In this document: positions 1 through 14,301 of the stretch, piece after piece
Position numbering within the stretch: the first letter of the stretch is position 1
How the letters are laid out: every line of letters starts with the position of its first letter
NCBI GenBank assembly: GCA_964641005.1
Contig: CAZXJW010000001.1
Span: 2,415 to 35,716, forward strand
Direction: 5' to 3'
DNA from: an uncultured Rhodocyclaceae bacterium
GTDB lineage: Bacteria; Pseudomonadota; Gammaproteobacteria; Burkholderiales; Ga0077523
DNA: 33,302 nucleotides
Notes under the pieces: model-generated
Databases searched by the model: none
Seen by the model: the letters and a program-made list of their open reading frames with translations, nothing else
What the model was told of the DNA's origin: nothing
Made by a program: the position numbers and the translations under genes

Positions 1-398
1 GCGGCCAGCGCCGGCAGCAGCGCGTCCATGGCATGGACGTAGGTGAAGTACTTTGCATCCATGGCGGCGTGCCAGGCGGCGGCGGTGAGCTGGTCGGGCG
101 GGGTGCGGCGGGCGGCGCCGGCGGAGTTCACCAGCACGTGGAGCTTGCCCATCTCGGCGGCCGCCTGGTCCGCCATGCGGGCCGCGTCCTCGGGCTTCGA
201 GAGGTCGGCCACGATGGTGAAGGGCGGCGCGTCGCCGGCCGAGTGCAGTCGCGCGGCGGCGATCTTGAGGTGTTCGGCGCTGCGCGACACCAGCGCCACG
301 CGTGCGCCTTCCGCCAGGAAGGCCGCGGCGCAGGCGAAACCGATGCCCTTGCTGCCGCCGGTGATCACCACCGCCTTGTCGTCGAGTTCGAGATCCAC
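1..398 (-). CDS. Short-chain dehydrogenase/reductase (SDR), N-terminal part only; the gene continues past the left window edge
   Basis: Not in the ORF track because it has no stop inside the window. The reverse complement from GTG at 398 reads VDLELDDKAVVITGGSKGIGFACAAAFLAEGARVALVSRS...LVNSAGAA. These are the Rossmann TGxxxGIG and NSAG motifs of classical SDRs. A GGAAAGGA Shine-Dalgarno-like run lies about 8 nt upstream. Confidence 0.8.
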   Translation of the reverse strand, partial: MDLELDDKAVVITGGSKGIGFACAAAFLAEGARVALVSRSAEHLKIAAARLHSAGDAPPFTIVADLSKPEDAARMADQAAAEMGKLHVLVNSAGAARRTPPDQLTAAAWHAAMDAKYFTYVHAMDALLPALA

Positions 399-440
399 GC
401 GAGAGTCCTTTCCGGGGCGGCCTGCCGCGCCGGCCGGGCG

Positions 441-1322
441 CTACAGCAGCGCGTCGGCCAGCACGCCGAGGAACACGGCACCGCCCACCTTGTTGTTGTC
501 CAGGAAGGCGCGGAAGCAGCCTTCCCGGGTCCGGTGGCGGATCATGCCGTACTGGCGCGCGCACAGCAGCCCCGCCGCCGCGAGTCCGGCATGGTAGGGC
601 CAGCCCGCCGAATGGACGTGGCCCACCGCCGCCATCAGCGCCAGGAAGCCGGCGTGGCAAAGCATCACCGCCGCCACGTCCAGGCGCCCGAACAGGATGG
701 CGCTGGTGCGCAGGCCCAGCCTGAGGTCGTCGTCACGGTCCACCATGGCGTACTCGGTGTCGTAGGCGATGGTCCACAGCACGTTCGCGGCGAGCATCAG
801 CCAGGCCTCCGGCGGAACCCGGCCCTGCAGCGCCGCGTAGGCCATGGGAATCCCGAAGCCGAAGGCGATGCCCAGGTAGGCCTGGGGTATGGCGAAGAAG
901 CGCTTGGTGAAGGGATAGCTGGCGGCCAGGAACGCGCCCGCGAAGGAGAGCTTCACCACCAGCGGGTCCAGCGGCAGGATCAGCACGAAGGCCGCCAGCG
1001 CCAGCACCGCCGCCACCGCCAGCGCCTCGCGCGGGCTCACCTGGCGCGCCGCGAGCGGGCGCGAGCGGGTGCGCTCCACGTGCGGATCGAAGTCGCGGTC
1101 GGCGTAGTCGTTGATGGCGCAGCCGGCCGAGCGCATCAGCACCGTGCCGGCCACGAAGATGGCCACCACCATGGCATCGGGCCGGCCGCCGCCGGCCAGC
1201 CACAGGGCCCAGAGGGTGGGCCAGAGCAGCAGCAGGATGCCGATGGGCCGGTCCAGCCGCACCAGCCGCGCGTAGAGCACGAGCCGCGTTCGAAGGCGGG
1301 ATGCGGGCGCGGCGTGCTGCAC
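441..1322 (-). CDS. ubiA: 4-hydroxybenzoate polyprenyltransferase (UbiA family)
   Basis: 293-aa ORF, multi-pass hydrophobic. It has both Asp-rich prenyltransferase motifs (NDYADRDFD and [12 protein letters not shown]) and RLDRPIG near the N-terminus. The listed start at 1322 is GTG, so the exact start is uncertain. Only 10 nt separate it from the stop of the upstream NuoB-like gene. Confidence 0.9.
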
Positions 1323-1332
1323 GGCGCTCGCC

Positions 1333-1842
1333 TCAGCGGGTCGCGATGGCCGTGAGGATCCCCTTGAGGATCGCCACCGGCGTGGGCGGACAGCCCGGCA
1401 CGGCCACGTCCACGGGGATCACGTTGGCCACCCTGCCGCAGCTCGCGTAGCCCTCGCCGAAGATCCCGCCCGTGCAGCCGCAGTCGCCCAGCGCCACCAC
1501 CAGCTTCGGGTCGGGCACCGCCTCCCAGGTGCGCCTGAGCGCGGTCTGCATGTTGCGCGACACCGGCCCTGTCACCAGCAGCAGGTCGGCGTGGCGCGGG
1601 CTGGCCGCCATGCGGATGCCGAGCTGTTCGAGGTTGTGCACCGGACTGTTGGCGGCATGGATCTCCAGCTCGCAGCCGTTGCACGAACCGGCATCCACGT
1701 GGCGGATCACCAGCGCGCCGCGGAAGCTGCGCAGGACCTCGTCCTTCAAGCGCTGGCGCACCTCTCGCAGCGCCTCGTCGGCCTCGGGTGGCGGTTCGGT
1801 GACGATGCCCGTGCGGGCGATCTGGCGAAGGATGCGGTACAT
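1333..1842 (-). CDS. NuoB / HyfI / HycG-like small subunit of a group-4-hydrogenase-related (Ehr-type) membrane complex
   Basis: 169 aa, ATG at 1842. The four-Cys pattern for the proximal [4Fe-4S] cluster is retained ([22 protein letters not shown]). Confidence 0.9.
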
Positions 1843-1852
1843 GGCCGTGGCT

Positions 1853-3400
1853 TCAGAGGTCCGCGCCAGCGTAGCTCAGGTTGAACGACTTGTTGATGAG
1901 CGGGAAGTCCGGGACGATGTTGCCGATCACGGCATGCTCCAGGGCCGGCCAGTTCTGCCAGGAGGGATCGTGGGGATGGCAGCGGCGCACCCGTCCGTCG
2001 GGGCCGGTCTCCAGCGCCACCATCGCCTCGCCGCGCCAGCCCTCCACCCAGCCGATGCCCAGGGCCGCGCGCGGCGCCGGCAGGGCCACGCGGCATTCGT
2101 CCTCGGGCAGGCCCTCGAGAATGGCGCGCAGCAGCCGCAGCGATTCGGTGATCTCGTCGAAGCGCAGCGCCACGCGCGCGGCCACGTCGCCGCCCGGCTG
2201 CGTCCGGTCGCGCACGCCGAGCGCATCCCAGGGGCTGCACGGCAGCTCGGCGCGCAGGTCGCGGCGAAGGCCGCTGGCGCGCGCCGCCATGCCGGTGAGT
2301 CCCAGGCGCAGCGCCAGCTCCCGGGACACGCGACCGCAGCCCGCGAAGCGGTCCTGGAGGCCGGCGTGCTCGTCGTAGATGGCGCGCAGCTCGGCAACCT
2401 CCGCCTCGAGCAGCGCCATCGCCTCGTGCTGGTCCGCCAGGTCCTCCATGGGCACGTCCATGGCCACCCCGCCGGGCACCACCGTGTCCATCAGGTAGCG
2501 GTGGCCGCACAGGCGCGCATTGTCGCGCAGCCACTCCTCCTTGAGCCTGCCGAACTGCGCCAGGCCGAAGGCGAGGCCGGCGTCGTTGCCCAGCATGCCC
2601 AGGTCGCCCAGGTGATTGGCCACGCGCTCGCGCTCGAGCAGCAGCGCGCGCAGCCAGGCCGCGCGCGGAGGGATCTCGACCCCCCAGGCCGACTCGAGCG
2701 CCATGCAGTACGCCCAGGCGTGGGTCACCGTGGAGTCGCCGCTCACCCGCCCCGCGAGCCGGTGGGCCTCGGCCGCGGGCAGCGACTCGAAACGCTTCTC
2801 GATGCCCTTGTGCTTGTAGCCCAGGCGCTCCTCGAGCCGCAGGACGCGCTCGCCCAGCACCGAGAAGCGGAAGTGGCCCGGCTCGATGGTCCCGGCGTGC
2901 ACCGGGCCCACGGGGATCTCGTGCACGCCCTCGCCGGCCACGGCCACGAAGGGATAGTCGTCGGGCGCCGGCTCGAAGGCCTGGCGGCCCACGAAGTCGC
3001 GCCGCAGCGGATGGGCGTCCGCGGGCCAGGCGCCATGGCGCAGCCACGGACGATGGTCGCGCGCCCCTTCGAACACCACTCCGTTCAGCTCGGCCGCGGC
3101 GCGCTGCAGCCGCACCGCCGGCAGGAACAGGTCGGACAGGTCGGGCACCGCGGGCGCCGCGCGGTCGGGCAGCGCGAGGCGCAGCAGCAGCAGGCCGGCC
3201 TCGTCGGCCAGCGCGGCGAACGCCTCGTGGCCCTCGCCGAGGTCGCGCCGGTCGGCCGCCCACAGCGACACCAGCCGGCCGCCACGCGCGTGCACCGCGC
3301 CCGCGGCGGCGCGCCAGCCGGCGGCGTTCACCTCGGCCAGGCGCACCGGCATGGCACCGGGCAGCGGCCGCGTGGCCACGGGCAGGGCGGCGGCGCTCAT
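1853..3400 (-). CDS. NuoC-NuoD fusion / HyfG-HycE-like 'large subunit' lacking the [NiFe] cysteine ligands
   Basis: ATG at 3400 overlaps the stop of the upstream gene (ATGA, 3397-3400). The 804-aa track ORF is only an upstream extension of this frame across the preceding gene. The N-terminal ~150 aa are NuoC-like and the rest NuoD/HycE-like (GPVHAGTIEPGHFRF, ERLGYKHKGIEK). The ligand positions read RVSGDSTVTH where R-x-C-G-x-C-x-x-x-H is expected. The C-terminus reads NKSFNLSYAGADL-stop where D-P-C-x-x-C-x-x-R is expected, and there is no C-terminal processing extension. Confidence 0.88.
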   Translation of the reverse strand: MSAAALPVATRPLPGAMPVRLAEVNAAGWRAAAGAVHARGGRLVSLWAADRRDLGEGHEAFAALADEAGLLLLRLALPDRAAPAVPDLSDLFLPAVRLQRAAAELNGVVFEGARDHRPWLRHGAWPADAHPLRRDFVGRQAFEPAPDDYPFVAVAGEGVHEIPVGPVHAGTIEPGHFRFSVLGERVLRLEERLGYKHKGIEKRFESLPAAEAHRLAGRVSGDSTVTHAWAYCMALESAWGVEIPPRAAWLRALLLERERVANHLGDLGMLGNDAGLAFGLAQFGRLKEEWLRDNARLCGHRYLMDTVVPGGVAMDVPMEDLADQHEAMALLEAEVAELRAIYDEHAGLQDRFAGCGRVSRELALRLGLTGMAARASGLRRDLRAELPCSPWDALGVRDRTQPGGDVAARVALRFDEITESLRLLRAILEGLPEDECRVALPAPRAALGIGWVEGWRGEAMVALETGPDGRVRRCHPHDPSWQNWPALEHAVIGNIVPDFPLINKSFNLSYAGADL

Positions 3401-4848
3401 CCGATCATCGCCGCGGCCTGGCGATACCACGCGGCGATCCAGGGCGGTATCCACAGGCCCAGCAGCAGCACGATGGCGAGGTGGACGAACACCGGCGCGG
3501 CCGCCGGGCGATGCTGCAGGGGCGCTCCGGTGGGCTCGCCGAACACCATGGCCTGCACGCGCCCGAACACGGCGGCGAAGGCCACGCCCAGCGCCAGCAG
3601 CAGCAACGGGGTGGCCCAGGGATGATCGCGCATGGCGGTGGTGAGGATCATGAACTCGGCGGTGAACACGCCGAAGGGCGGCATGCCGAGGATCGCGATC
3701 GTGCCCAGCATCAGCCCCCAGCCCACCGCCGGACTGCGCGACACCAGGCCGCGGATGCCCTCCATGGCCTGGGTGCCGGTCTTCTGCGCGGCGTGCCCCA
3801 CGGCGAAGAAGATGGCCGACTTGGTGAGCGAGTGCACGGTCATGTGCAGCAGCGCGGCGAAGCCCGCCACCGCTCCGCCCATGCCGAAGGCGAAGGTGAT
3901 CAGGCCCATGTGCTCGATGGAGGACCAGGCGAACAGCCGCTTCACGTCCTTCTGGCGCGACAGGAAGAATGCCGCCACCAGCACGGTGAGCAGCCCGAAG
4001 CCCATCATCAGCCGGCCGGCCAGGGCCGTGCCCAGCGCGCCGTCCACCAGCACCTTGGAACGCACCACGGCGTACAGCGCCACGTTCAGCAGCAGCCCGG
4101 AGAGCACCGCGGAGATGGGCGTGGGGCCCTCGGCGTGGGCGTCCGGCAGCCAGTTGTGCAGCGGCACGAGGCCCACCTTGGTGCCATAGCCCACCAGCAG
4201 GAAGACGAAGGCGATGGCGAGCACGGTGGGCTCGAGCTGGTCCTTCACGGCGTCCAGGTGCGTCCACAGCAGCGCCGTGCCGCCGGCGCCGAGCACGCGC
4301 TCGGCGGCGAGGTAGATCAGGATGGTGCCGAACAGCGCCTGGGCGATGCCCACGCCGCAGAGCAGGAAGTACTTCCAGGCCGCCTCCAGGCTGGCCGGCG
4401 TGCGGTACAGCGACACCAGCAGCACCGTGGCGAGCGTGGCGCCCTCCATGGCCACCCAGAGGATGCCCAGGTTGTTGGTGGTGAGCGCGAGCAGCATGGT
4501 GAACAGGAACAGCTGGTACATGGCGTGGTAGAGGCGCATGCCGCCCGGGCCGATGCGTCCCCGGTCCACCTCGGTGCGCATGTAGGGGCGGCTGAACAGC
4601 GCCGTGGTGAAGCCCACGAAGGTGGTGAGCGCCACCAGGAACACGTTGAAGGCGTCCACGTGGAACTGCTCGCGCAGCAGCACCTGGGGACCGGCCTCCA
4701 CCACCTGCATGGCCATGGCGGCGGCGGACAGGAAGCCGAAGCCCGCGAACACCGCGTTCAGGTCGGCGGCCTCGTGCCGGTCGCCGCGCCAGGCGAGCCA
4801 GGCGGCGCCGGCGAGCGGCAGGGCGAGCACCATCAGCAGCGCCGTCAT
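3397..4848 (-). CDS. HyfF / NuoM-N-like antiporter-type membrane subunit
   Basis: 483 aa from ATG 4848 (MTALLMVLALPLAG...), which overlaps the upstream stop as ATGA (4845-4848). It has the antiporter-subunit signature WLPDAHAEGPTPISAVLSGLLLNVALY and is polytopic. Confidence 0.88.
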   Translation of the reverse strand: MTALLMVLALPLAGAAWLAWRGDRHEAADLNAVFAGFGFLSAAAMAMQVVEAGPQVLLREQFHVDAFNVFLVALTTFVGFTTALFSRPYMRTEVDRGRIGPGGMRLYHAMYQLFLFTMLLALTTNNLGILWVAMEGATLATVLLVSLYRTPASLEAAWKYFLLCGVGIAQALFGTILIYLAAERVLGAGGTALLWTHLDAVKDQLEPTVLAIAFVFLLVGYGTKVGLVPLHNWLPDAHAEGPTPISAVLSGLLLNVALYAVVRSKVLVDGALGTALAGRLMMGFGLLTVLVAAFFLSRQKDVKRLFAWSSIEHMGLITFAFGMGGAVAGFAALLHMTVHSLTKSAIFFAVGHAAQKTGTQAMEGIRGLVSRSPAVGWGLMLGTIAILGMPPFGVFTAEFMILTTAMRDHPWATPLLLLALGVAFAAVFGRVQAMVFGEPTGAPLQHRPAAAPVFVHLAIVLLLGLWIPPWIAAWYRQAAAMIG

Positions 4849-5504
4849 CCGCGGTCCCTCAGCTTCTCGAGGTTGCGCACGTCGAGGCTGTCGAAGGTCT
4901 CGCGGATGCGGAAGAAGAAGATGCCGAACACGAACACGCCCACCAGCACGTCGAGCGCGATGCCCAGCTCCACCACCATGGGCATGCCGTAGGTGGCGCC
5001 GGTGGCGGCGAAGAACAGCCCGTTCTCCAGCGCGAGGAAGCCGATCACCTGCGGGATGGCGCGCCGGCGGGTGATCATCATGAGCAGCGACAGCAGCACC
5101 GCCGCCATGGCGATGCCCAGCGTGCCGCGGGTGATGGTGCCGGAGAGCTCGGCGATGGGCAGGGCCAGGTTGAAGGCGATCACCACCAGCACGATGCCCA
5201 CCAGCAGGGTGGTGGGCACGTTGATGAGCGGCTCCACGTCGCGGTCCACTTCCAGGCGCACCGCCAGCCGGCGCAGCACCAGCGGCAGCAGCGCCGCCTT
5301 GAGCAGCGCCGTGAGGCCCGCCGACCACCACAGGTGGGCCTGGCCCGTGCTCCAGGCCACCACGGCGGTGTTGGCCGCCAGCAGCGCACCCTGCAGGGCG
5401 AACAGCCCGATCAGCGCCATCAGGCGCCGCTGGGCGAGCATGGCGAAGGCCATCAGCAGCATCAGCGCCGCCAGCAGGTCGATGAGCTGGGCGGACAGGC
5501 TCAC
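4845..5504 (-). CDS. HyfE-like small membrane subunit
   Basis: 219 aa from GTG 5504 (VSLSAQLIDLLAALMLL...), overlapping the upstream stop as GTGA (5501-5504). Hydrophobic, with a GFLALENGLFFAA motif typical of HyfE/NuoK-like subunits. The rest of the 507-aa track ORF is an out-of-gene extension. Confidence 0.8.
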   Translation of the reverse strand: MSLSAQLIDLLAALMLLMAFAMLAQRRLMALIGLFALQGALLAANTAVVAWSTGQAHLWWSAGLTALLKAALLPLVLRRLAVRLEVDRDVEPLINVPTTLLVGIVLVVIAFNLALPIAELSGTITRGTLGIAMAAVLLSLLMMITRRRAIPQVIGFLALENGLFFAATGATYGMPMVVELGIALDVLVGVFVFGIFFFRIRETFDSLDVRNLEKLRDRG

Positions 5505-6469
5505 CGGGGTGCCGCCTGCAGGAAGAAGGTGAGCATGCCCAGCACCGCCAGCAGGAAGGCCATGCCGAGGAACTCGGGAGCGCGGAAGATGCGCATCTTC
5601 GCCGACACGGTCTCGAGCAGCGCGAGCGCGAAGCCGCCGATGAACAGCTTTGCCGTGAGCGCCGCCAGCGCCAGGGGAAGGAGGTCCCAGCGCCCCGCCG
5701 GCGCCACGCCCCAGGGGGCGAACAGCGCGATGCCGACGCCGGCGTAGACCATGAACTTGAGCGCGTGGGCCCATTCCATGAGGGCGAGGTGGCGGCCCGA
5801 GTACTCGAGCAGCATGGCCTCGTGGATCATGGTGAGCTCCAGGTGCGTGGCCGGATTGTCCACCGGGATGCGGGCGTTCTCGGCCAGCAGCACCATCACG
5901 AAGGCCACCGCGGCGAAGGCGAGGCTCGGATGCAGGGCGAAGGGCTGGTACGCGAGGGTCTCGACGATGGTGGTGAGCGATGTGGAGCCCGCGATCAGCG
6001 AGGGCATGAAGAACACCATCAGCAGCGCCGGCTCGGCCAGCCCCGCCACCAGCATCTCGCGACGCGCGCCCAGCGAACCGAAGGCGGTGCCCGTGTCCAT
6101 GGCGGCCAGCGCCATGAACACCCGGGCCGTGGCCAGCAGCCCCACCAGCGCGATCACGTCGGCGGCCGGCGCGAACGGCAGGTCGGTGGCCACCATGGGC
6201 ACGATGCCCGCCGCGAGGACCATGCAGCCGAACACGCAGTAGGGCGCGAAGCGGAACAGGAAGGAGGCCTCGTGCGCCACCACCGACTCGCGTGCCAGCA
6301 GCTTGAGCAGCACCCGCCAGGGCTGCAGCAGCCCCGGGCCGGTGCGGTTGCCGAGCCACGCGCGGCACTGAGCCACCCAGCCCGCGAGCAGCGGCGCGGC
6401 CAGCACCAGCAGCAGCGTCTCGATCAGCTGCGACAGCGCGAACGGTGGCACGAGACCGGGTTCAGGCAC
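5501..6469 (-). CDS. HyfC / HycD / NuoH-like membrane subunit
   Basis: 322 aa, GTG start at 6469, with an 8-nt overlap on the upstream gene; an alternative GTG lies at 6451. NuoH-family core: AENARIPVDNPATHLELTMIHEAMLLEYSG. Confidence 0.88.
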   Translation of the reverse strand: MPEPGLVPPFALSQLIETLLLVLAAPLLAGWVAQCRAWLGNRTGPGLLQPWRVLLKLLARESVVAHEASFLFRFAPYCVFGCMVLAAGIVPMVATDLPFAPAADVIALVGLLATARVFMALAAMDTGTAFGSLGARREMLVAGLAEPALLMVFFMPSLIAGSTSLTTIVETLAYQPFALHPSLAFAAVAFVMVLLAENARIPVDNPATHLELTMIHEAMLLEYSGRHLALMEWAHALKFMVYAGVGIALFAPWGVAPAGRWDLLPLALAALTAKLFIGGFALALLETVSAKMRIFRAPEFLGMAFLLAVLGMLTFFLQAAPR

Positions 6470-8471
6470 GGATCACCAGCAGCAGGAACAGCAGCGTGGC
6501 GAAGCTGTACACCAGGTACAGGTGGATGCGGCCGTGCTGCAGCGGCGCGACCAGCGCCGAGATGCGGGCGGCGAGCCGCGCCACCGGCAGGTAGAGCCAG
6601 TGCCAGAGCCGGTCCTCGGTGCGCGCGGCGTAGCGCGGCGCCTCGTCGAAGGGGTCGGGTACGTGGCGCTCGATGCGGAAGAAGGGTTCGAAGATCTGCT
6701 TGATGGGCTGGCCGAAGCCCTCGGCCGTGTCCTGCATGCGCGCGGTCTGGGCCGGGAAGCCGCAGTCCCAGGGATCGGCTCGGCGGGTGCGCCCGTGCCA
6801 GAGCTGGCGCACCAGCAGCCACGTGGCGGCGATCACGCCGGCCACCACCACCAGGAACAGCAGCGGCGAATAGCTCGCCCGGTCGGCGGAGTCCGGCGTG
6901 AGGAACACCCAGCCGCGCGCCAGCGGCGCGCCGATGCCCTGGCCGAGCAGCAGCACCGACACCGGCTCGAGGCCGCGCAGCACCAGCACCGGCAGCACGC
7001 CCAGCAGCACGCAGGCGGCGGCGAAGTACGCCAGCGCGGCGCGCTCCCACGGGCCGGCGTCGCGGGCCTCGCGCAGGCTCGGCTCGCGCGGGCGGCCCAG
7101 GAACACCACGCCGTAGAACTTCACCATGACGTAGGCCGCGAACGCTGCCGCGAGCACCAGCGCCGCGGTGGCGATGGGCACGAACATGCGCAGGTAGGAA
7201 TCGGGCAGCTGCGGCGAGAGCAGGAAGGCCTGCAGCAGCAGCCACTCGGAAGCGAAGCCGTTGAGCGGCGGCAGGCCGGCGATGGCCAGGGCCCCCACCA
7301 GGGCCGTGGCCGCCACCCAGGGCATGCGCCGCGCCAGGCCGCCGAGATGGCCGAGGCTGCGCTGCGACGTGGCATGCATGACCGAGCCGGTGGCGCAGAA
7401 CAGCAGGCTCTTGAACATGGCGTGGTTCAGGCAGTGGTAGAGGGCGGCGGCCAGGGACAGCGCCGCCAGCGCCACCATGCCGTGGTGGCGGAACACCAGC
7501 GCCAGGCCCAGCGCCGCCAGCACGATGCCCAGGTTCTCGATGGACGAGTAGGCGAGCAGGCGCTTCATGTCCGTCTGCACCGCCGCGAACATCACGCCGA
7601 ACAGCGCAGTGGCCAGCCCCAGCGCCAGCGCCGCGACGCCCCACCAGGCGGCCGGCTCGCCGGCTAGGTCGAAGCCCACCCTCAGCAGCCCGTACACCGC
7701 CGTCTTCAGCATCACGCCGCTCATGAGCGCCGACACCGGCGAGGGCGCGGCGGGATGGGCCTCGGGCAGCCAGGCATGCACCGGCAGGAAACCCGCCTTG
7801 GCGCCGAAGCCCAGCAGCGCCAGCACGAAGGCCAGCCCCGCCCAGGCCTCGCTGCGGCCGGCGCCGCGCATGGCCTCGAAGGTGTACTGCCCGGCGCCCG
7901 CCTGCAGCACGCCGAAGGTGAGCAGGATCGCCACCGCACCCACGTGCGCCATGAGCAGGTACAGGAAGCCCGCGCCGCGGATCTCCGCCACGCGATGGTC
8001 GGTGACCACCAGGAAGTAGGAGGCCAGCGCCATGGTCTCCCAGGCCACCATGAACAGGTAGGCGTCGTCGGCCACCAGGACCGTGGCCATGGCGGCGAGG
8101 AACAGGTGCACCTGGAGGCAGGTCAGCCCCGGCTGCGGATTGGCCGCGCCGCGGAAGTAGCCGGCGGAATAGACGAGCACGCCGGCCGAGGCGGCGCCCA
8201 GCAGCAGCAGGAAGAAGCCCGACAGCGCATCGGCGCGCAGGTGGAAAGGCAGGTCGGGCAGGCCCAGCGGCAGCACCAGCACCTGGGGCGCCGCGCCCAT
8301 GGACATCCAGCCGCACCATGCCAGCAGCAGCGCGCCCACGGCGCCCGCCGGATAGAGCACGTGCACGGCATCGCGTTCACGCCCGAGCCACAGGCCGACC
8401 AGGCCCAGGGCGATCCAGTAGGCCGCCACGCCGAGGACGACGGCGAGCGGCGAGAGGGCGGCTGCGCTCAT
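6462..8471 (-). CDS. HyfB / NuoL-like antiporter-type membrane subunit
   Basis: 669 aa, ATG at 8471. Signature WLPEAHPAAPSPVSALMSGVMLKTAVYG, a long polytopic protein with the C-terminal extension typical of HyfB/NuoL. Confidence 0.9.
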   Translation of the reverse strand: MSAAALSPLAVVLGVAAYWIALGLVGLWLGRERDAVHVLYPAGAVGALLLAWCGWMSMGAAPQVLVLPLGLPDLPFHLRADALSGFFLLLLGAASAGVLVYSAGYFRGAANPQPGLTCLQVHLFLAAMATVLVADDAYLFMVAWETMALASYFLVVTDHRVAEIRGAGFLYLLMAHVGAVAILLTFGVLQAGAGQYTFEAMRGAGRSEAWAGLAFVLALLGFGAKAGFLPVHAWLPEAHPAAPSPVSALMSGVMLKTAVYGLLRVGFDLAGEPAAWWGVAALALGLATALFGVMFAAVQTDMKRLLAYSSIENLGIVLAALGLALVFRHHGMVALAALSLAAALYHCLNHAMFKSLLFCATGSVMHATSQRSLGHLGGLARRMPWVAATALVGALAIAGLPPLNGFASEWLLLQAFLLSPQLPDSYLRMFVPIATAALVLAAAFAAYVMVKFYGVVFLGRPREPSLREARDAGPWERAALAYFAAACVLLGVLPVLVLRGLEPVSVLLLGQGIGAPLARGWVFLTPDSADRASYSPLLFLVVVAGVIAATWLLVRQLWHGRTRRADPWDCGFPAQTARMQDTAEGFGQPIKQIFEPFFRIERHVPDPFDEAPRYAARTEDRLWHWLYLPVARLAARISALVAPLQHGRIHLYLVYSFATLLFLLLVIRA

Positions 8472-8525
8472 GCGCGGGGGAGCGTCAAGGTGGGGTCGAT
8501 GATACGTCGAAGGGGGGACCGGCCT

Positions 8526-10601
8526 TCACACGCGCAGCAGTTCGCCCCGCCCGCCGAGCCAGCGCTCCACGTGGGCGCGGGCCGCCGCCTCGTGGTGCTG
8601 CAGCATCCAGGCGGCCGCGTCGCGGGCGGACTCCAGCAGCGCCGCGTCGGCCACCAGGTCGGCGAAGCGCAGCATGGGCACGCCGCTCTGGCGCGCGCCC
8701 AGCAGCTCGCCCGGGCCGCGCAGGCGCAGGTCCTCCCGGGCGATCTCGAAACCATCGGTGTTCTCGTAGATGATCCTCAGCCGCTCGCGCGCCAGCGGGC
8801 CGAGCGGCTTCTGGTAGAGCAGCACGCAGGCCGACTCGGTGGAGCCGCGCCCCACGCGCCCGCGCAGCTGGTGCAGCTGCGACAGGCCCATGCGCTCGGC
8901 GTGCTCGATCACCATCAGCGAGGCGTTGGGCACGTCCACACCCACCTCGATCACGGTGGTGGCCACCAGAAGCTGGATGCCGCCGGCCTTGAAGTCGGCC
9001 ATCACCCGGGCCTTCTCCACCGCGGGCAGCCGCCCGTGCACCAGGCCCACCACGAGGTCCGGAAACGCTGCCTGCAGCACGGCGTGGGTGTCGAGCGCGG
9101 TCTTGAGCTGCAGCTGCTCGCTCTCCTCGATGAGCGGGCACACCCAGTAGGCCTGGCTGCCCGCGGCGCAGGCCTGGCGCACGCGGTCGAGCACGGCCTC
9201 GCGCCGCTCCTCCGACACCACCTTGGTCACCACCGGCGTGCGCCCGGGCGGCAGTTCGTCGATCACCGAAACGTCCAGGTCGGCATAGAAGCTCATGGCC
9301 AGCGTGCGCGGGATCGGCGTGGCACTCATCATGAGCTGGTGGGGCAGCGCATCGCCACCGGCGCCCTTGAGCCGCAGCGCGAGCCGCTGGTGCACGCCGA
9401 AGCGGTGCTGCTCGTCCACGATGGCGAGCGCCAGCCGGGGGAAGGTGACCGCTTCCTGGAACAGCGCGTGGGTGCCCACGGCCACGGCGGCGCGCCCCTC
9501 CTCCACCGCGGCGAGCGCCGAGCGGCGCGCCTTCGCCCCGAGGCTGCCGGCGAGCCAGGCCACCTCCACCCCCAGCGGCTCGAACCAGCCGCGGAACTTG
9601 TGGTGATGCTGCTCGGCCAGGATCTCGGTGGTCGCCGTATCATTAAAAAAGAAACCATCCTGCACGGCGCACGCGGCCGCGAGCGCGGCCACCACGGTCT
9701 TGCCGCTGCCCACGTCGCCCTGCAGCAGTCGCTGCATGGGATGCGCGCGGGAGACGTCCGCGCGGATCTCGCCGAGCACGCGCTGCTGGGCGCCGGTCAG
9801 GCGGAACGGCAGTTCCGCCTCGAGCCGGGCGGCGAGCGCCCCGCCAGCGCCCAGCGGCTCGGCGCGCGCCGCGTCGCGCGAGCGGCGGTGGATGCGCATG
9901 GAGAGCTGCTGGGCGAGCAGTTCGTCGAACTTCACCCGCTGCCAGGCCGGGTGGATGCGCGACTCCAGCGCCTCGAGGGCGACGTCGGGCGGCGGATCGT
10001 GCAGCAGCTTCAGCGACTCCGCGTAGGACGGCAGCGCCAACCGCTTCACCAGGCCGGCGGGCAGCGTGTCCGAGAGATCGCACTGCGCGAGTGCCCGCGC
10101 CACTGCCTGGCGCAGCGCCGGCTGCGACAACCCGGCGGTGGTGGGATAGACCGGCGTGAGCCGGTCCGGCAGCGCCTCGTCGCCACGCACCACGCGGATG
10201 CGCGGATGGACCATCTCCGCCCCGAAGAAGCCGGGCCGGATCTCGCCCACCAGGCGCACCCTGGCGCCGGGCAACAGCTGCTTCTGCTGGCTGGGATAGA
10301 AGTTGAGCAGCCGCACCACGAGCTCGCCGCCGGCGTCGCGCACCCGTGCCACCAGCTGGCGGCGCGGTCGGTACTTCACGTCCGCGTCCACCACCGTGCC
10401 CTCCACCTGGGTGAGCACGCCGGCGGGCGCCTCGGCGATGGGATACAGCCGGGTCTCGTCCTCGTAGCGCAGCGGCAGGTGCAGGGGAAGCTCGCACAGC
10501 CTGCGCAGGCCGAGTTTCGCGAGGCGCTCGGCGACGCTCGGGGCGATGCCCTCGAAATCGCCCGCCGGCGCGGCGCGCGCCGGCTTGTCAGCCGTCGGCA
10601 A
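8526..10601 (-). CDS. recG: ATP-dependent DNA helicase RecG
   Basis: 691 aa with Walker A GDVGSGKT, DEQHRFG, SATPIPRT and GRVGRG, plus an N-terminal wedge region (LPLRYEDET). The listed start at 10601 is TTG and overlaps the ridA-like stop by 14 nt, so the start is uncertain. The motif Ia region is disrupted by the adapter-like patch at 9621-9654. Confidence 0.92.
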   Translation of the reverse strand: MPTADKPARAAPAGDFEGIAPSVAERLAKLGLRRLCELPLHLPLRYEDETRLYPIAEAPAGVLTQVEGTVVDADVKYRPRRQLVARVRDAGGELVVRLLNFYPSQQKQLLPGARVRLVGEIRPGFFGAEMVHPRIRVVRGDEALPDRLTPVYPTTAGLSQPALRQAVARALAQCDLSDTLPAGLVKRLALPSYAESLKLLHDPPPDVALEALESRIHPAWQRVKFDELLAQQLSMRIHRRSRDAARAEPLGAGGALAARLEAELPFRLTGAQQRVLGEIRADVSRAHPMQRLLQGDVGSGKTVVAALAAACAVQDGFFFNDTATTEILAEQHHHKFRGWFEPLGVEVAWLAGSLGAKARRSALAAVEEGRAAVAVGTHALFQEAVTFPRLALAIVDEQHRFGVHQRLALRLKGAGGDALPHQLMMSATPIPRTLAMSFYADLDVSVIDELPPGRTPVVTKVVSEERREAVLDRVRQACAAGSQAYWVCPLIEESEQLQLKTALDTHAVLQAAFPDLVVGLVHGRLPAVEKARVMADFKAGGIQLLVATTVIEVGVDVPNASLMVIEHAERMGLSQLHQLRGRVGRGSTESACVLLYQKPLGPLARERLRIIYENTDGFEIAREDLRLRGPGELLGARQSGVPMLRFADLVADAALLESARDAAAWMLQHHEAAARAHVERWLGGRGELLRV
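9621..9654 (-). other. Illumina P5 flow-cell oligo sequence (24-nt exact match plus T-rich spacer) embedded in recG; probable assembly or adapter contamination
   Basis: The minus strand reads TTTCTTTTTT-AATGATACGGCGACCACCGAGATC. The last 24 nt equal the 5' part of P5 (AATGATACGGCGACCACCGAGATCTACAC). It is the only AT-rich patch inside an ORF in this window. It replaces the conserved RecG segment x-Q-x-A-L-M-A-P with FFFNDTAT. Confidence 0.7.
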
Positions 10602-10968
10602 GGATGGCGTCCACCTCGACGGAGGCAGCGCGCGGCAGGCCTGCCACCTGCACCGTGGTGCGCGCAGGCCAGGGCTGGCGGAAATAGCCGGCCATGATCT
10701 CGTTGAGCTTCGGGAAATCGCGCATGTCGGTCAGGTAGACCTGGACCTTCACCGCATCGTCGAGGCTGCGCCCGGCGGCCGCCGCCACCGCCTGGAGGTT
10801 GCGGAACACCTGGTGGATCTGCGCCTCGATGCCGCCGGGCACCAGCTCGCCGGTGGCCGGATCCAGCGGCGTCTGGCCGGAGAGGTAGATGGCGCCATGG
10901 CTGCGCACGGCCTGGGAATAGATGCCGATGGCGGCGGGTGCGTCGGGACTGTGGACGGGCTGGCGCAT
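10588..10968 (-). CDS. RidA / YjgF / TdcF-family reactive-intermediate deaminase
   Basis: 126 aa from ATG 10968 (MRQPVHSPDAPAAIGIYSQAV...ARTTVQVAGLPRAASVEVDAI), with GAGG 6 nt upstream. The longer 152-aa track ORF adds an unlikely N-terminal extension. Confidence 0.85.
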   Translation of the reverse strand: MRQPVHSPDAPAAIGIYSQAVRSHGAIYLSGQTPLDPATGELVPGGIEAQIHQVFRNLQAVAAAAGRSLDDAVKVQVYLTDMRDFPKLNEIMAGYFRQPWPARTTVQVAGLPRAASVEVDAILADG

Positions 10969-11120
10969 GGAAACCTCGGGGAATGGTGACGCGGCATGGT
11001 ATGCGAGCCCCCCGGCTGCCTCAATGCACCGCGGCGCGGCAACCACTCCCGTCGCCGCGCGTACTGCACCGCAGCATCGGCGGTGCTACGATGCGCGCCT
11101 CGCCTCCGGGCGCGTGCCTC

Positions 11121-13061
11121 ATGAACGACCCCCAGCCCAGTTCCGCCGCCGCGGCGGACCCGGAAGGCTCTCCGCCACCGGGCCCGGCGGGTCCGCATCG
11201 CCGCAGCAGCCTGGCCGCCCTGGCGCTGGGCGCGGTGGGCGTGGTGTTCGGCGACATCGGCACCAGCCCGCTGTACACCATGAAGGAGGCCTTCGGCCCG
11301 GCCCACGGTCTGGCACTCACCCACGACAACGTGCTGGGCGTGCTGTCGCTCGTGTTCTGGTCGCTCATGGTGTTCGTGACGCTCAAGTACGTCACGCTGG
11401 TGATGCGTGCCGACAACCGCGGCGAGGGCGGCATCATGGCGCTCATGTCGCTGGTGGTGGGCACCACGGCACGCCGCTCGCGTGGCCGCTGGTGGCTCAT
11501 GACCCTGGGCATGTTCGGTGCGGCGCTGTTCTACGGCGACAGCATGATCACGCCGGCCATCTCGGTGCTCTCGGCGGTGGAAGGGCTGTCGGTGGCCACG
11601 CCGGTGTTCGACCCCTACATCGTGCCCATCACCCTGGTGGTGATCGTGGTGCTGTTCGTGGTGCAGTTCAAGGGCACGGGCACGGTGGGCGCGCTGTTCG
11701 GGCCCATTACGCTCGCGTGGTTCATCGTGCTCGCGGTGCTCGGCGTCGGCCAGATCATCCACAACCCGCACGTGCTGCTCGCCCTGAACCCGGCGTGGGC
11801 GGTCGGCTTCTTCGTGGAGAACCGGCTCGCGGCCTTCCTGGCGCTGGGCGCGGTGGTGCTGGCGGTGACGGGCGCCGAGGCGCTCTATGCCGACATGGGC
11901 CACTTCGGGCGCACGCCCATCCGCCTGGCGTGGTTCGCGGCGGTGTTCCCCGCGCTGGTGCTGAACTACTTCGGCCAGGGGGCCCTGCTGCTGTCCGACC
12001 CCTCGGCGGTGGCGCACCCCTTCTTCCGCATGGTTCCCGGCTGGGCGCTGTACCCGATGGTGGCGCTCGCCACCATGGCCACGGTGATCGCCTCCCAGGC
12101 GGTGATCTCGGGCGCCTACTCCCTCACCCGCCAGGCCATCCAGCTCGGCTACTGCCCGCGACTGGCCGTGCACCACACCTCCGAGAAGGAGATGGGCCAG
12201 GTGTACATGCCGTGGATCAACTGGGCGCTGCTGGTGGCCGTGATCGCGCTGGTGCTGGGCTTCCGCTCCTCCAGCGCGCTGGCCTCGGCCTACGGCATCG
12301 CGGTGACGGGCACCATGGCCATCGACACCATCCTGCTGTACTTCGTGATCAGCCGGGTGTGGAAGTGGGGCCGCGCCGCGGCGCTGGCCATCTGCGGCGT
12401 GCTGCTGGTGATCGACCTGGCCTATTTCGGCGCGAACTCGGTGAAGGTGTTCCAGGGCGGCTGGTTCCCGCTGGTGATCGCCGCGGCGGTGTTCCTCGTG
12501 ATCTCCACCTGGCGGCGCGGACGCGAACTGCTGTTCGACCGGCTGCGCCCGGGCGCGATCCCCATCGAGCCCTTCCTCGCCTCCATCACCGCCCACCCGC
12601 CGCAGCGCGTGCCCGGCACGGCCGTGTTCCTCACGGCAGGCCGCGAGGGCGTGCCGCACGCCATGCTGCACAACCTCAACCACAACAAGGTGCTGCACGA
12701 GCGCGTGGTGCTGCTCACGGTGCTCACCGAGAACGTTCCGTACGTGGACGACGCCAACCGCCTGGAGGTGGCGGAGCTCGGCGCTGGCTTCTACCGCATG
12801 ACCGTGCGCTACGGCTTCAAGGATGAACCCGACCTGCCGAAGGCGCTCATGCTGCCCAACGCGCTCGGCCTGCAGTTCGAGATGATGGAGACCTCGTTCT
12901 TCCTGTCGCGCCAGACCATCGTGCCCACCAGGGCGCCGGGCATGCCGCTGTGGCGCGAGAAACTGTTCGCCGCGCTGTCGCGCAACTCCGGCAGCGCCAC
13001 GGAGTTCTTCCGCATCCCCACCAACCGGGTGGTGGAGCTGGGAACGCAGATCGAGATCTAG
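11121..13061 (+). CDS. kup: KUP/HAK/KT-family potassium uptake protein
   Basis: 646 aa from ATG 11121 (an alternative ATG lies at 11091). Family signature GVVFGDIGTSPLYT, 12 predicted TM segments and a cytoplasmic C-terminal domain ending ...VVELGTQIEI. Confidence 0.92.
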   Translation: MNDPQPSSAAAADPEGSPPPGPAGPHRRSSLAALALGAVGVVFGDIGTSPLYTMKEAFGPAHGLALTHDNVLGVLSLVFWSLMVFVTLKYVTLVMRADNRGEGGIMALMSLVVGTTARRSRGRWWLMTLGMFGAALFYGDSMITPAISVLSAVEGLSVATPVFDPYIVPITLVVIVVLFVVQFKGTGTVGALFGPITLAWFIVLAVLGVGQIIHNPHVLLALNPAWAVGFFVENRLAAFLALGAVVLAVTGAEALYADMGHFGRTPIRLAWFAAVFPALVLNYFGQGALLLSDPSAVAHPFFRMVPGWALYPMVALATMATVIASQAVISGAYSLTRQAIQLGYCPRLAVHHTSEKEMGQVYMPWINWALLVAVIALVLGFRSSSALASAYGIAVTGTMAIDTILLYFVISRVWKWGRAAALAICGVLLVIDLAYFGANSVKVFQGGWFPLVIAAAVFLVISTWRRGRELLFDRLRPGAIPIEPFLASITAHPPQRVPGTAVFLTAGREGVPHAMLHNLNHNKVLHERVVLLTVLTENVPYVDDANRLEVAELGAGFYRMTVRYGFKDEPDLPKALMLPNALGLQFEMMETSFFLSRQTIVPTRAPGMPLWREKLFAALSRNSGSATEFFRIPTNRVVELGTQIEI

Positions 13062-13082: not shown

Positions 13083-14183
13083 TCAATGCCGCGTCTTCGA
13101 CTCCGGGAACATGTACACCTTGCCGCCCTTCATGCGCGGCGGCGAGGGCTGGTTGCCCTTGCTCACGGCGTCGGCGGCGGAATCGAACACGATCGCCACC
13201 ACCTTGCGCGAGGCGTCGCGATAGCAGCGCAGGCGCAGCTGGTCGATGTGCCAGTAGGGATCGGCGAGCCGGTCGCAGCGCGCCAGCTCCATGAGGAAGC
13301 CCCCGTTGGCCAGCGCGATGCGGCGAGACTGGTGCTCGGTGCCCTGGATGAGACGCGCGAAGTCCGGCGCCTGGGCGCCCTCCTCGAGCAGCGACACCAC
13401 CACCGGCCGGGCAGGCTCGCCCAGCTCGGTGCGCTCGAAGCCCACGCTCACCACGAAGGAATCCATGCCCTTGTACGACTCGGTCTCGCAGGTGTACGCC
13501 TCGTGGTGGAAGACGAAGAAGCTCACCGCCGCCTGGCCCCACTTCAGTGCCGTCTCCACCGCGAAGGACAGGTCCCACTTGCCGGCCTTGAGGTCGGGGA
13601 TCACCGCCGAGGTGCCGCCGCGCGACTGGCAGGCCACGGACAGCTTGTCGCCCACCTTGAAGCCGGCGAACTCCTCGAAGTCGGAGTGGGACATGTACTC
13701 GTAGGTCTCCTCGAGGCCCTCGGCCATCTCGCCGCGTTCGTAGCTGACGCGACCGTCGTAGCCCGTGCCGTCGGGATACGCGTACTCCAGGGTGAAGCGC
13801 AGCTTCTGGTATTCCTCGGAGAGCATGCGCGCCAGCCCCAGCAGCGGCGTGCGGCTGGTGTAGAACTCGTAGGTGACCGAGTTCTCCTCCTCGGTGACGA
13901 TGTAGACCGGGTGGCTGGAATCGGCGTAGTCGCCCCAGCGCTCGCGCAGGTAGGCGCACAGGCGCCCCATGGTGCGCGCCGAATCGCCGAACAGCGGATC
14001 GGGCACCGGGTCGAATTCGCCGAACTTCAGGAACCAGTCGACCTCGCTGCCCCAGCGCTCGGATTCCTCCAGGGCGCGGCGGAAGGTGCGCAGCTCGGGC
14101 GGCTCGCCGCTCACCTGGAGCAGCTGGCGGCAGCCGGCCTCGTCGTCGTCTTCGGGGGAATCGGGGTAATCGTCTTCGGACAT
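13083..14183 (-). CDS. Hypothetical acidic cytoplasmic protein (no family confidently recognised)
   Basis: 366 aa, ATG at 14183, codon usage native for this window. Very acidic N-terminus (MSEDDYPDSPEDDDEAG), with no signal peptide or TM segment. Convergent with kup (21-nt gap) and divergent from the sirtuin gene. Confidence 0.7.
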   Translation of the reverse strand: MSEDDYPDSPEDDDEAGCRQLLQVSGEPPELRTFRRALEESERWGSEVDWFLKFGEFDPVPDPLFGDSARTMGRLCAYLRERWGDYADSSHPVYIVTEEENSVTYEFYTSRTPLLGLARMLSEEYQKLRFTLEYAYPDGTGYDGRVSYERGEMAEGLEETYEYMSHSDFEEFAGFKVGDKLSVACQSRGGTSAVIPDLKAGKWDLSFAVETALKWGQAAVSFFVFHHEAYTCETESYKGMDSFVVSVGFERTELGEPARPVVVSLLEEGAQAPDFARLIQGTEHQSRRIALANGGFLMELARCDRLADPYWHIDQLRLRCYRDASRKVVAIVFDSAADAVSKGNQPSPPRMKGGKVYMFPESKTRH

Positions 14184-14301
14184 TCTGCGGACGCAGGGCG
14201 GGCGGGAGTACGGCGGGCCGGCAGTTTACAACAGGCCACCCCCCGGAGGCCCGGCGCTGCTACGCTGGCAACTCCACCACCCCTGCCACTCGACCGTCCG
14301 G

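Follow-up and report, generated by a model that had tools for sequence, protein, structure and literature searches.

What is the role of a membrane complex that is built like hydrogenase 4 and has lost every ligand of the nickel–iron (Ni–Fe) centre in its large subunit? The question is raised by a six-gene module (1333–8471) in a 33,302-nucleotide (nt) stretch of DNA with a G+C content of ~72% (the window; contig CAZXJW010000001.1, positions 2,415 to 35,716) from an uncultured Rhodocyclaceae bacterium. Our analysis indicates that the module almost certainly is a member of the energy-converting hydrogenase-related (Ehr) family and not a [NiFe] hydrogenase, and that the complex it encodes is very probably functional. 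The best explanation overall is that this Ehr-type cassette acts as an ion-translocating redox module with a separate partner, a reading to which we give roughly even probability; the specific mechanism that we infer, ion-coupled electron transfer from the partner to quinone, is possible rather than probable.

All six genes lie on the minus strand and their reading frames are intact. They encode, in this order, a HyfB/HycC/NuoL-like antiporter-type subunit with an HycC-type C-terminal extension (B; 6462–8471, 669 amino acids (aa)), a HyfC/HycD/NuoH-like membrane subunit that starts with GTG (C; 5501–6469, 322 aa), a HyfE-like membrane subunit with a NuoK-like C-terminal half (E; 4845–5504, 219 aa), a HyfF/NuoM-N-like antiporter-type subunit (F; 3397–4848, 483 aa), a large subunit in which a NuoC-like domain (residues ~1–150) is joined to a HycE/NuoD-like domain (G; 1853–3400, 515 aa) and a HycG/MbhJ/NuoB-like small subunit that has no Fer4 domain (I; 1333–1842, 169 aa). 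Pfam, NCBIfam and PDB matches confirm this HyfB/C/E/F/G/I-like composition, which an earlier reading of the bare sequence (the original prediction) had proposed. Read directly from the DNA, B and C overlap by 8 nt (GTGCCTGA, 6462–6469), C and E by GTGA (5501–5504), and E and F as well as F and G by ATGA (4845–4848 and 3397–3400, respectively); G and I do not overlap and are separated by a 10-nt gap. The chaining of the genes is thus as originally described, but the stoichiometric co-translation that had been deduced from it is an interpretation that the DNA itself does not carry.

The fate of the metal site can be read from G. The protein matches Pfam Complex1_30kDa and Complex1_49kDa, its best PDB sequence relative is HycE (phmmer, 1.9e-56), which scores above NuoD, and its AlphaFold2 model (pLDDT 89.6, pTM 0.92; low confidence only in the β1–β2 loop, residues 166–174) has HycE as its best PDB fold match (7Z0S_E, TM score 0.91/0.88), with the fused NuoCD of E. 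coli as the next best. In the residue-level alignment with HycE, RVCGIC is replaced by RVSGDS and DPCYSC by NLSYAG, and G terminates three residues further on. The L1-equivalent segment RVSGDSTVTH (residues 218–227; 2720–2749, minus strand) stands where hydrogenases have RxCGxCxxxH, and the L2-equivalent segment FNLSYAGADL (residues 506–515, followed by the stop codon; 1856–1885, minus strand) stands for DPCxxCxxR; the coordinates of both were checked by translation. All four Ni–Fe cysteines are therefore gone, so that the SGDS and NLSYAGADL substitutions pointed out in the original prediction, and its conclusion that G cannot hold a canonical [NiFe] centre, are both borne out. Cys ligands at shifted positions, which the prediction had named as evidence that would speak against it, were not found in the alignment of the G clade: it contains no conserved Cys, and the columns with Cys in more than 30% of the sequences lie away from the site. 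The prediction had also pointed to the missing C-terminal extension that maturation proteases cleave off. The extension is indeed missing, but its absence is not diagnostic of a lost Ni–Fe site, because the nearest Cys-bearing relatives, which end ...DR, are without it too.

These features place the module in a family that has a name. Ehr owes its name to Coppi (2005) and Marreiros et al. (2013), works cited in PMC6349859, PMC7894505 and PMC12342949, and is defined as a cluster resembling group 4 hydrogenases and complex I whose large subunit is without the Ni–Fe CxxC motifs (quoted in PMC6349859, PMC10284858 and PMC12342949). As late as 2025 it was described as being of unknown function, unlikely to be a hydrogenase and near group 4f (PMC6349859, PMC10284858, PMC12342949, PMC10432482). 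The homologous core subunits are present in the window as a self-contained set and both CxxC motifs are missing, which supports the match to Ehr clusters that had been suggested.

The segments that replaced the ligands are themselves conserved. Among representatives down to 35% identity, the L1 consensus is R-[VI]-[SAC]-G-D-[STEN]-x-x-x-H and the C terminus reads F-N-L-S-Y-[SA]-G-x-D-L-stop. G221, D222, Y510, G512 and D514 are invariant in a 30-sequence alignment and S220 is nearly so; N507 and S509 are also conserved. The exact pattern of the window (SGDS, G271/I502/L508 and SY[SA]G) occurs in 48 of 81 species sequences, and the remainder are close variants. About 60 polar residues of G, including those of the former active-site region, are at least 95% conserved, the residues of the hydrogenase proton path are kept (E173, H176, R218 and H227), and Asp139 of complex I Nqo4 corresponds to D273. 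Because both former ligand sites carry conserved motifs specific to this family, the Cys-less proteins have not decayed at random; a polar pocket of another kind, conserved and with an Asp that is newly invariant, has taken the place of the former metal site. Such a pocket could still be catalytic, with SGD[S/T] and NLSY forming, together with the E173/H176/R218 proton path, a new active or ion-loading site. We see a slim chance of this, and the same slim chance for its extreme form, an H2:quinone oxidoreductase of aerobes that works without nickel and is compatible with O2, a reading suggested by the genetics of Azorhizobium.

Those genetics concern Hyq, which is the closest experimentally studied relative and was missing from the original prediction. 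Azorhizobium caulinodans carries hyqRBCEFGI (AZC_4360–4355), termed an 'endo-hydrogenase' and controlled by NifA (PMC2650096, PMC3357923). It has the same six structural genes in the same order as the window, HyqG is a 504-aa NuoC::D fusion without both CxxC motifs, and HyqI has the four Cys (PMC3357923). Deletion of hyqBCEFGI slows diazotrophic growth, and microaerobic H2 evolution needs hyq (PMC2650096, PMC3357923). These phenotypes, together with the proteomics of Geobacter Ehr (PMC7894505), overturn the earlier statement that the family is defined only bioinformatically. The Hyq authors infer an H2:ubiquinone oxidoreductase, with Sprecher et al. inferring quinone binding at the HyqC/G/I interface (PMC3357923), yet they call the catalytic site speculative and a Ni–Fe centre 'uncertain, if not unlikely' (PMC3357923).

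By analogy, the window complex might oxidize or evolve H2 at a non-canonical site in G and pass electrons through the [4Fe–4S] cluster to ubiquinone. This is suggested by the gene order and subunit set shared with hyqBCEFGI, by a HyqG that is equally devoid of CxxC motifs, by the hyq phenotypes and by the retained proton-path residues; a weak hint is that membranes of Burkholderia plantarii oxidize H2 without an annotated hydrogenase, in a paper that draws no link to the cluster (PMC13626601). However, three further Cys that the Hyq authors noted as conserved in HyqG, C258, C491 and C497 (PMC3357923), are replaced by G271, I502 and L508 in the window, and their absence leaves none of the Cys candidates for a catalytic pocket that the Hyq subfamily had provided. 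The alphaproteobacterial protein P0143 (Falsiroseomonas, 504 aa, 44% identical to window G) has precisely these three HyqG Cys, in FICND and DFPLCNKSFNCSY / DFPLCNKSFNCSYSGVDL, and shares the SGD and NxSYSGxDL signatures with window G. The homologue of At. ferrooxidans is a non-hydrogenase according to HydDB (PMC7735108), Nitrospira Ehr is not induced by H2, hyp and other maturation genes were not found in the window, and the Hyq results are genetic only, the enzyme never having been purified. The loci also differ in regulation: hyq has the regulator gene hyqR and, in diazotrophs, NifA/sigma-54 control, whereas the window has no regulator gene and a reading of the 54-nt spacer upstream of B showed no −24/−12 element. 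H2 turnover has been claimed for Hyq from genetics, and there is no basis for it at the window locus, so that we consider a Hyq-like hydrogenase very unlikely here.

The small subunit, I, matches Pfam Oxidored_q6 (2.5e-31) and, in the PDB (phmmer), HycG (1.1e-39) and MbhJ (2.9e-36). Alignment to HycG, MbhJ and Nqo6 confirmed the earlier observation that all four Cys of the proximal [4Fe–4S] cluster are retained, in the hydrogenase-type CxxC arrangement: C54 (codon 1681–1683), C57 (1672–1674), C121 (1480–1482) and C151 (1390–1392), each at least 95% conserved in 76 sequences. Motif and Pfam scans likewise upheld the absence from the window of a NuoI/HyfH-type ferredoxin, formate dehydrogenase (FDH), hyp and hycI genes. 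All six frames of the 33-kb window are free of the motif CxxCxxCxxxCP, NuoI, NuoE, NuoF and NuoG were not detected in it by Pfam or motif scan, and Pfam scans of its other plausible genes revealed no FDH, hyp or hycI.

A comparison can be made with the nearest Cys-bearing relatives, which are 35–42% identical in G, read RxCGxC ... ELCYxCxDR-stop and have been reported as group 4f-like [NiFe] proteins (PMC10284858). Two loci were inspected. In the first, L086, the order B-C-E-F-G-I, the lack of a cleavage extension and an 'IVTE' motif are the same as in the window, and the difference lies in the retained RxCGxC/ELCYxC. Its small subunit is longer (240 aa) because a 2×[4Fe–4S] ferredoxin domain (CQTGCHRCTQICP ... 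CIFCHACRQVCP) is inserted between the N-terminal 'IVTE' motif, which window I shares (TGIVTEP), and the NuoB domain. The second, L087, is a short contig on which only G and I are visible; of the Fer4 domain, its 274-aa small subunit keeps only a degenerate remnant. Compared with these relatives, chiefly L086, the family of the window has also lost the relay domain, and it is thus without both ends of the ancestral electron path, the Fer4 relay and the Ni–Fe site, with the proximal cluster alone kept. L087 (2434–3258) also displays a pattern of loss opposite to that of the window, as its large subunit (P0170) keeps RICGVC/ELCYSC and its small subunit is without three of the four proximal-cluster Cys (DAGSDNAADWE ... 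PGDPP).

The missing relay bears on a possible connection with formate, in which the complex would be the membrane anchor or coupling module of an FDH encoded elsewhere and would work as a formate:quinone oxidoreductase or a formate-driven ion pump. The complex descends from enzymes of the formate hydrogenlyase (FHL) type, all Ehr subunits of Geobacter were most abundant on formate (PMC7894505), an FDH–Ehr association has been proposed for Margulisbacteria and Saganbacteria from co-occurrence with fdhA-nuoEF (PMC6349859), and a role in formate metabolism has been suggested for At. ferrooxidans (PMC7735108) and Nitrospira (PMC5596200). However, the relay domain that would be needed to wire an FDH to the proximal cluster is lost. 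Moreover, no FDH, NuoE/F or Fer4 gene is present in the window or recurrent in the flanks of 81 loci, the open reading frames (ORFs) of which were clustered all-versus-all to seek recurrent partners; a Fer4 motif was found in the flanks of one of the 81 loci only. The flank genes that do recur in this set are an RHH_9 regulator (17 loci), generic sensor kinases, MetG/ApbC and SulP–STAS. We regard an FDH module as quite unlikely.

The membrane subunits, by comparison with the head, have kept the charged residues through which complex I, Mrp and Mbh move protons or ions. B matches Pfam Proton_antipo_M (1.1e-51) and NCBIfam NF005086 ('hydrogenase 4 subunit B'; 866.8 bits against a cut-off of 667), has E. 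coli HycC as its best PDB relative (7Z0S_C, phmmer, 1.2e-63) and also resembles MrpA and MrpD. Its residues E145, K225, H350, K354, E409 and, in the C-terminal part, W568/C570 are at least 95% conserved in 55 family sequences. F matches Proton_antipo_M and NCBIfam NF005045 ('hydrogenase 4 subunit F'; 843 bits against a cut-off of 543), and its E135, K224, H335, H339, K343 and E398 reach the same level of at least 95% in 70 sequences. Common to B and F are the Glu of transmembrane helix (TM) 5, the Lys of TM7, the His/Lys of TM11 and the Glu of TM12; the TM7 Lys kept in window B is absent from HycC. C (Pfam NADHdh, 3e-35; best PDB relative HycD, 7Z0S_D, phmmer, 5.4e-45) has an acidic chain of E138, E146, E197, D204, E211, E217 and E222 that is at least 95% conserved, along with a conserved Y223. 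E matches NCBIfam NF008556 ('hydrogenase 4 membrane subunit', 1.3e-23) below the cut-off of that model and, weakly, Pfam Oxidored_q2 (0.001, residues 130–216); E160, E179 and D185 are conserved, E160 and E179 in at least 95% of sequences. The C-terminal 135 aa of B were matched by phmmer to the HycC C terminus only, and a NuoA/ND3-like identity of this extension, considered on the basis of a 'WDCGF' motif, was left unconfirmed by that search.

These matches also confirm that databases mislabel such genes, as had been stated: the NCBIfam equivalogs for hydrogenase 4 subunits B and F score above their cut-offs, and homologues carry source names such as 'Ni,Fe-hydrogenase III large subunit', 'NADH-quinone oxidoreductase subunit C' and even 'HypE'. 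Annotation as hydrogenase 4 or NADH dehydrogenase in turn distorts metabolic reconstructions of H2 and formate metabolism.

Intact channels beneath a stripped-down head are also what would be expected if the complex were a Mrp-like cation/proton antiporter or another secondary transporter, in which the G–I head and its cluster were structural or gated transport by sensing redox state or O2. The antiporter residues are fully conserved, B resembles MrpA and MrpD, the Ni–Fe site and the Fer4 relay are both gone so that one isolated cluster is left, no redox partner is conserved nearby in the 81 loci, and in five of them a SulP–STAS gene lies co-oriented 53–351 nt upstream. On the other hand, a passive scaffold would not seem to call for at least 95% conservation both of the four cluster Cys and of ~60 polar residues of G, a sensor of this type has no demonstrated precedent, and only the MrpA/D-like domains (B and F) are present, next to the G–I head; MrpB, MrpC, MrpE, MrpF and MrpG homologues were not detected in the window complex. 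A transporter or sensor of this kind is, in our judgement, unlikely.

The family is large and its gene order stable. With G as the query and E ≤ 1e-10 as the threshold, a word-indexed search returned 8000 matches and an exhaustive search of cluster representatives returned 3867, and a one-genome-per-species scan found at least 600 loci with a relative of the large subunit. The best 80 of these come from Burkholderiales, Gallionella, Thiobacillus, Paraburkholderia/Burkholderia, Thiomonas, Rhodanobacter and Acidithiobacillus as well as Acidobacteriaceae, Nitrospirota, Mariprofundus and Methylococcaceae. The order B-C-E-F-G-I is kept at each of the 54 fetched loci with a full-length B. At one locus, from a Nitrospirae metagenome-assembled genome (MAG; L066), B and C are missing and F is separated from G by an unrelated gene; it was handled as a decayed or mis-assembled outlier. 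The closest matches of G are Cys-less relatives, followed by the Cys-bearing group-4-like proteins, and the exact window protein has no record in the contig index. In a neighbour-joining tree the Cys-bearing sequences group together; the tree is star-like and midpoint-rooted, its rooting is unreliable, and it was not used to derive a direction of evolution.

All six genes are under purifying selection. In pairwise comparisons, the ratio of non-synonymous to synonymous substitution rates (dN/dS) is 0.09–0.20 against a relative that is 85% identical in G and 0.10–0.25 against one that is 98% identical, and the flanking RecG and UbiA give 0.15. These values, which resemble those of the housekeeping neighbours, argue that the complex is not a relic. 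The contrary view, that it is a drifting, non-functional remnant of a hydrogenase, has been asserted for Geobacter Ehr (PMC13194489) and would fit three observations: the catalytic ligands are gone, B of the 98% relative has a premature stop and, as described below, the genes are present in some close relatives and absent from others. But drift would not be expected to leave the frames intact, the translational-coupling overlaps conserved, dN/dS low in six of six genes, and family-specific motifs invariant across at least 600 species in several phyla. Decay thus appears extremely improbable as an explanation.

The observations counted in favour of an ion-translocating redox module with a separate partner are the gene content, order and overlaps; the lost Ni–Fe Cys together with the kept cluster Cys; the HycE-like fold of G; the conserved motifs and ion-channel residues; the low dN/dS; the occurrence in at least 600 species genomes; the gene order shared with the nearest Cys-bearing relatives, with the Fer4 domain of L086; the near absence of Fer4 motifs from window and flanks; the quinone binding that Sprecher et al. 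infer for HyqC/G/I; and the literature view that Ehr is not a hydrogenase (PMC6349859, PMC10284858, PMC12342949). Such a module would convert energy in the manner of complex I with a minimal set of subunits. Electrons would pass directly between the single cluster of I and a partner encoded separately, for example a ferredoxin, flavodoxin or dehydrogenase, and this partner would dock on the surface freed by the lost Fer4 relay. The cluster would also exchange electrons with an acceptor or donor in the membrane, most plausibly quinone, at the C/G/I interface. Electron transfer would be coupled to movement of H+ or Na+ in B and F by way of a conserved network in G (E173/H176/D222/D273) and the chains of Glu residues in C and E, and the reaction may run in either direction.

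Several points weigh against this proposal. The complex I quinone ligands Tyr87 and His38 of Thermus thermophilus Nqo4 align to G221 and I172, both of which are family-invariant, the β1–β2 loop of G (GPVHAGTIEPGHFRF) is hydrogenase-like and not NuoD-like, and the predicted cluster ligation is of the CxxC and not the tandem-Cys N2 type, Nqo6 C45 being aligned to G56. In the flanking DNA of the 81 loci, no gene for a ferredoxin, FDH, NuoEF or another electron donor or acceptor recurs. A lone cluster without a second redox site also fits a structural or sensory role, and neither electron transfer nor ion pumping has been shown by experiment for any Cys-free member. The neighbouring ubiA cannot make up for this: two Burkholderiales loci (L088 and L089) have recG beside ubiA without the cassette, so that the adjacency is accidental and carries no functional weight, and ubiA/ubiD adjacency as a link to quinone (a 10-nt gap in the window and a 4-nt overlap in L084) was rejected. 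Finally, in the 98% relative, codon 52 of B is changed from TGG to TAG in two separate Joint Genome Institute (JGI) metagenomes (L082, 4653–4808; L083, 4048–4203). Owing to this premature stop, B is called there as ORFs of 51 and 612 aa, which suggests that the complex is dispensable at least in that relative; the window keeps the Trp codon.

Comparison with characterized and described systems shows how the window relates to them. The best PDB sequence or fold matches for B, C, G and I are to the E. coli FHL complex (Hyc, 7Z0S), in which HycC shares the C-terminal extension of B; in contrast, the Ni–Fe site, the HycF/HyfH and HycB/HyfA ferredoxins, FdhF and the maturation genes of FHL (Hyc/Hyf) have no counterpart at the window locus. 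Complex I shares homologues of NuoB, NuoC, NuoD, NuoH, NuoK and NuoL/M/N and the charged residues of the antiporters and E channel, whereas its NuoI, NuoE, NuoF and NuoG, its Tyr87/His38 quinone ligands and its tandem-Cys ligation are not found in the window complex. The Geobacter sulfurreducens cluster GSU0739–0745, compared by its published description, is alike in its NuoL-, NuoH- and HyfE-like, large and small subunits and in having no Ni–Fe CxxC; it is reported with seven genes, including two ehrA, whereas the window has the six-gene betaproteobacterial form.

The locus as such is not new, because hyfBCEFGI has already been described in Cupriavidus metallidurans CH34 (Rmet_4666–4671) and C. 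necator H16 (H16_A2196–A2201; PMC2864759), in At. ferrooxidans, with a catalytic subunit scored as a non-hydrogenase by HydDB (PMC7735108), and in Nitrospira (PMC5596200). These clusters have the same order and content as the window and are without hyfA, hyfD, hyfH and hyfJ. The fetched loci from Burkholderia/Paraburkholderia, an Acidithiobacillus sp. (L062), Nitrospirota and other Burkholderiales have the same motifs at 43–63% identity in G. Relative to the hyfBCEFGI clusters, the window sequence is new (63% identity in G to the nearest species genome) and its insertion site between recG and ubiA differs, and nothing functional sets it apart. What is added here is the replacement pocket, the Fer4 loss, the purifying selection, the cassette-like insertion and the distinction from the Hyq subfamily. 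The window thus adds no new kind of system and is a typical member of a known family, but Ehr/Hyq complexes are among the most widespread relatives of complex I without an assigned function, with carriers that include nitrifiers, iron and sulfur oxidizers, methanotrophs, Burkholderia and Cupriavidus. The question of their function dates from 2005, and the window and its relatives sharpen it: both ends of the electron path are lost, one Fe–S cluster and all ion-channel residues are kept, a pocket with its own invariant residues has evolved, and the six genes behave as a portable cassette under purifying selection.

The cassette character emerges from the surrounding genes. The 98% and 85% relatives have the layout Kup-RidA-RecG-[six genes]-UbiA-SDR-UbiD, and recG and ubiA also flank the cassette in two more distant MAGs (L004 and L007). 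L088 and L089, with a UbiA 75% identical to that of the window, have Kup-RidA-RecG-UbiA-SDR-UbiD without the cassette, and their recG and ubiA are 15 nt apart or overlap. Because these cassette-free relatives have the same synteny block, the six genes are a discrete 7.1-kb insertion into the recG–ubiA spacer, or else were cleanly lost from it. On the minus strand of the window, the cassette is bounded upstream by the 54-nt recG–B spacer (8472–8525) and downstream by a 10-nt I–ubiA spacer (1323–1332). The window has no gene between recG and B. A seventh gene ahead of B, an idea prompted by a small RHH_9 gene at that place in L001, was rejected because the 95-aa ORF concerned (8468–8755) lies within the 3′ end of recG and translates as a high-GC shadow of that gene.

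Upstream of the start of B, the spacer contains an element (TATCATC, 7–8 arbitrary nt, CAyCTTGa) that is common to the window, L082, L084 and L004, lineages in which recG precedes the cassette, with TATCAT at 8499–8504 of the window. It may be a promoter −10 region or an operator; a promoter role is a suggestion only, because a consensus scan called no sigma-70 promoter in the recG–B spacer, and a promoter and terminator scan of positions 1–11200 was uninformative. In 15 loci an RHH_9 gene lies within 300 nt upstream of the cassette, co-oriented or divergent (L001, L011, L017, L020, L025, L034, L044, L048, L051, L055, L056, L058–L060 and L064). The five loci with the upstream SulP–STAS anion transporter gene (L015, L029, L043, L052 and L072) belong to different lineages. 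Both genes are absent from the window and are possible leads to the regulation of the complex and to a transport-related role.

By Pfam, the other plausible genes of the window encode UbiA, RecG, RidA, Kup, a SIR2 protein, a TonB-dependent receptor, an M55 peptidase and an extracytoplasmic function (ECF) sigma factor/DUF6596 protein. In recG, an AT-rich in-frame patch (GGTTTCTTTTTTAATGATACGGCGACC) at ~9627–9656 (minus strand) replaces a conserved helicase motif: where GFQVAVMAPTEILAEQH or a near variant with the invariant core AVMAPTEILAEQH stands in three relatives, one of them L082 with its 96%-identical RecG, the window reads GFFFNDTATTEILAEQH. The patch, odd in a genome of 72% G+C, could be an assembly artefact or a disabling substitution. 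A 380-aa ORF at 13086–14225 (minus strand), with a coding-like G+C content at third codon positions (GC3) of 0.94, has a weak match to DUF1281_C, a ferredoxin-like domain of Api92-like proteins (1.8e-05), as its sole match. At the far end, an ORF of more than 3,490 aa (22811–33301, plus strand; GC3 0.96) starts at ATG 22811, runs off the window and has no Pfam match. It consists almost entirely of ~25–27-aa repeats rich in V, T, A, G and S ('..VSAVETVxGSxGxDxVxLL..'), with a period of 75–81 nt in the DNA, and may encode a huge repetitive surface protein. On the matching side of the syntenic block, L088 has a 4,054-aa gene that likewise gives no Pfam match. In the window, a gene for tRNA-Ala(CGC) (22343–22418, minus strand) lies a short way upstream of the giant ORF.

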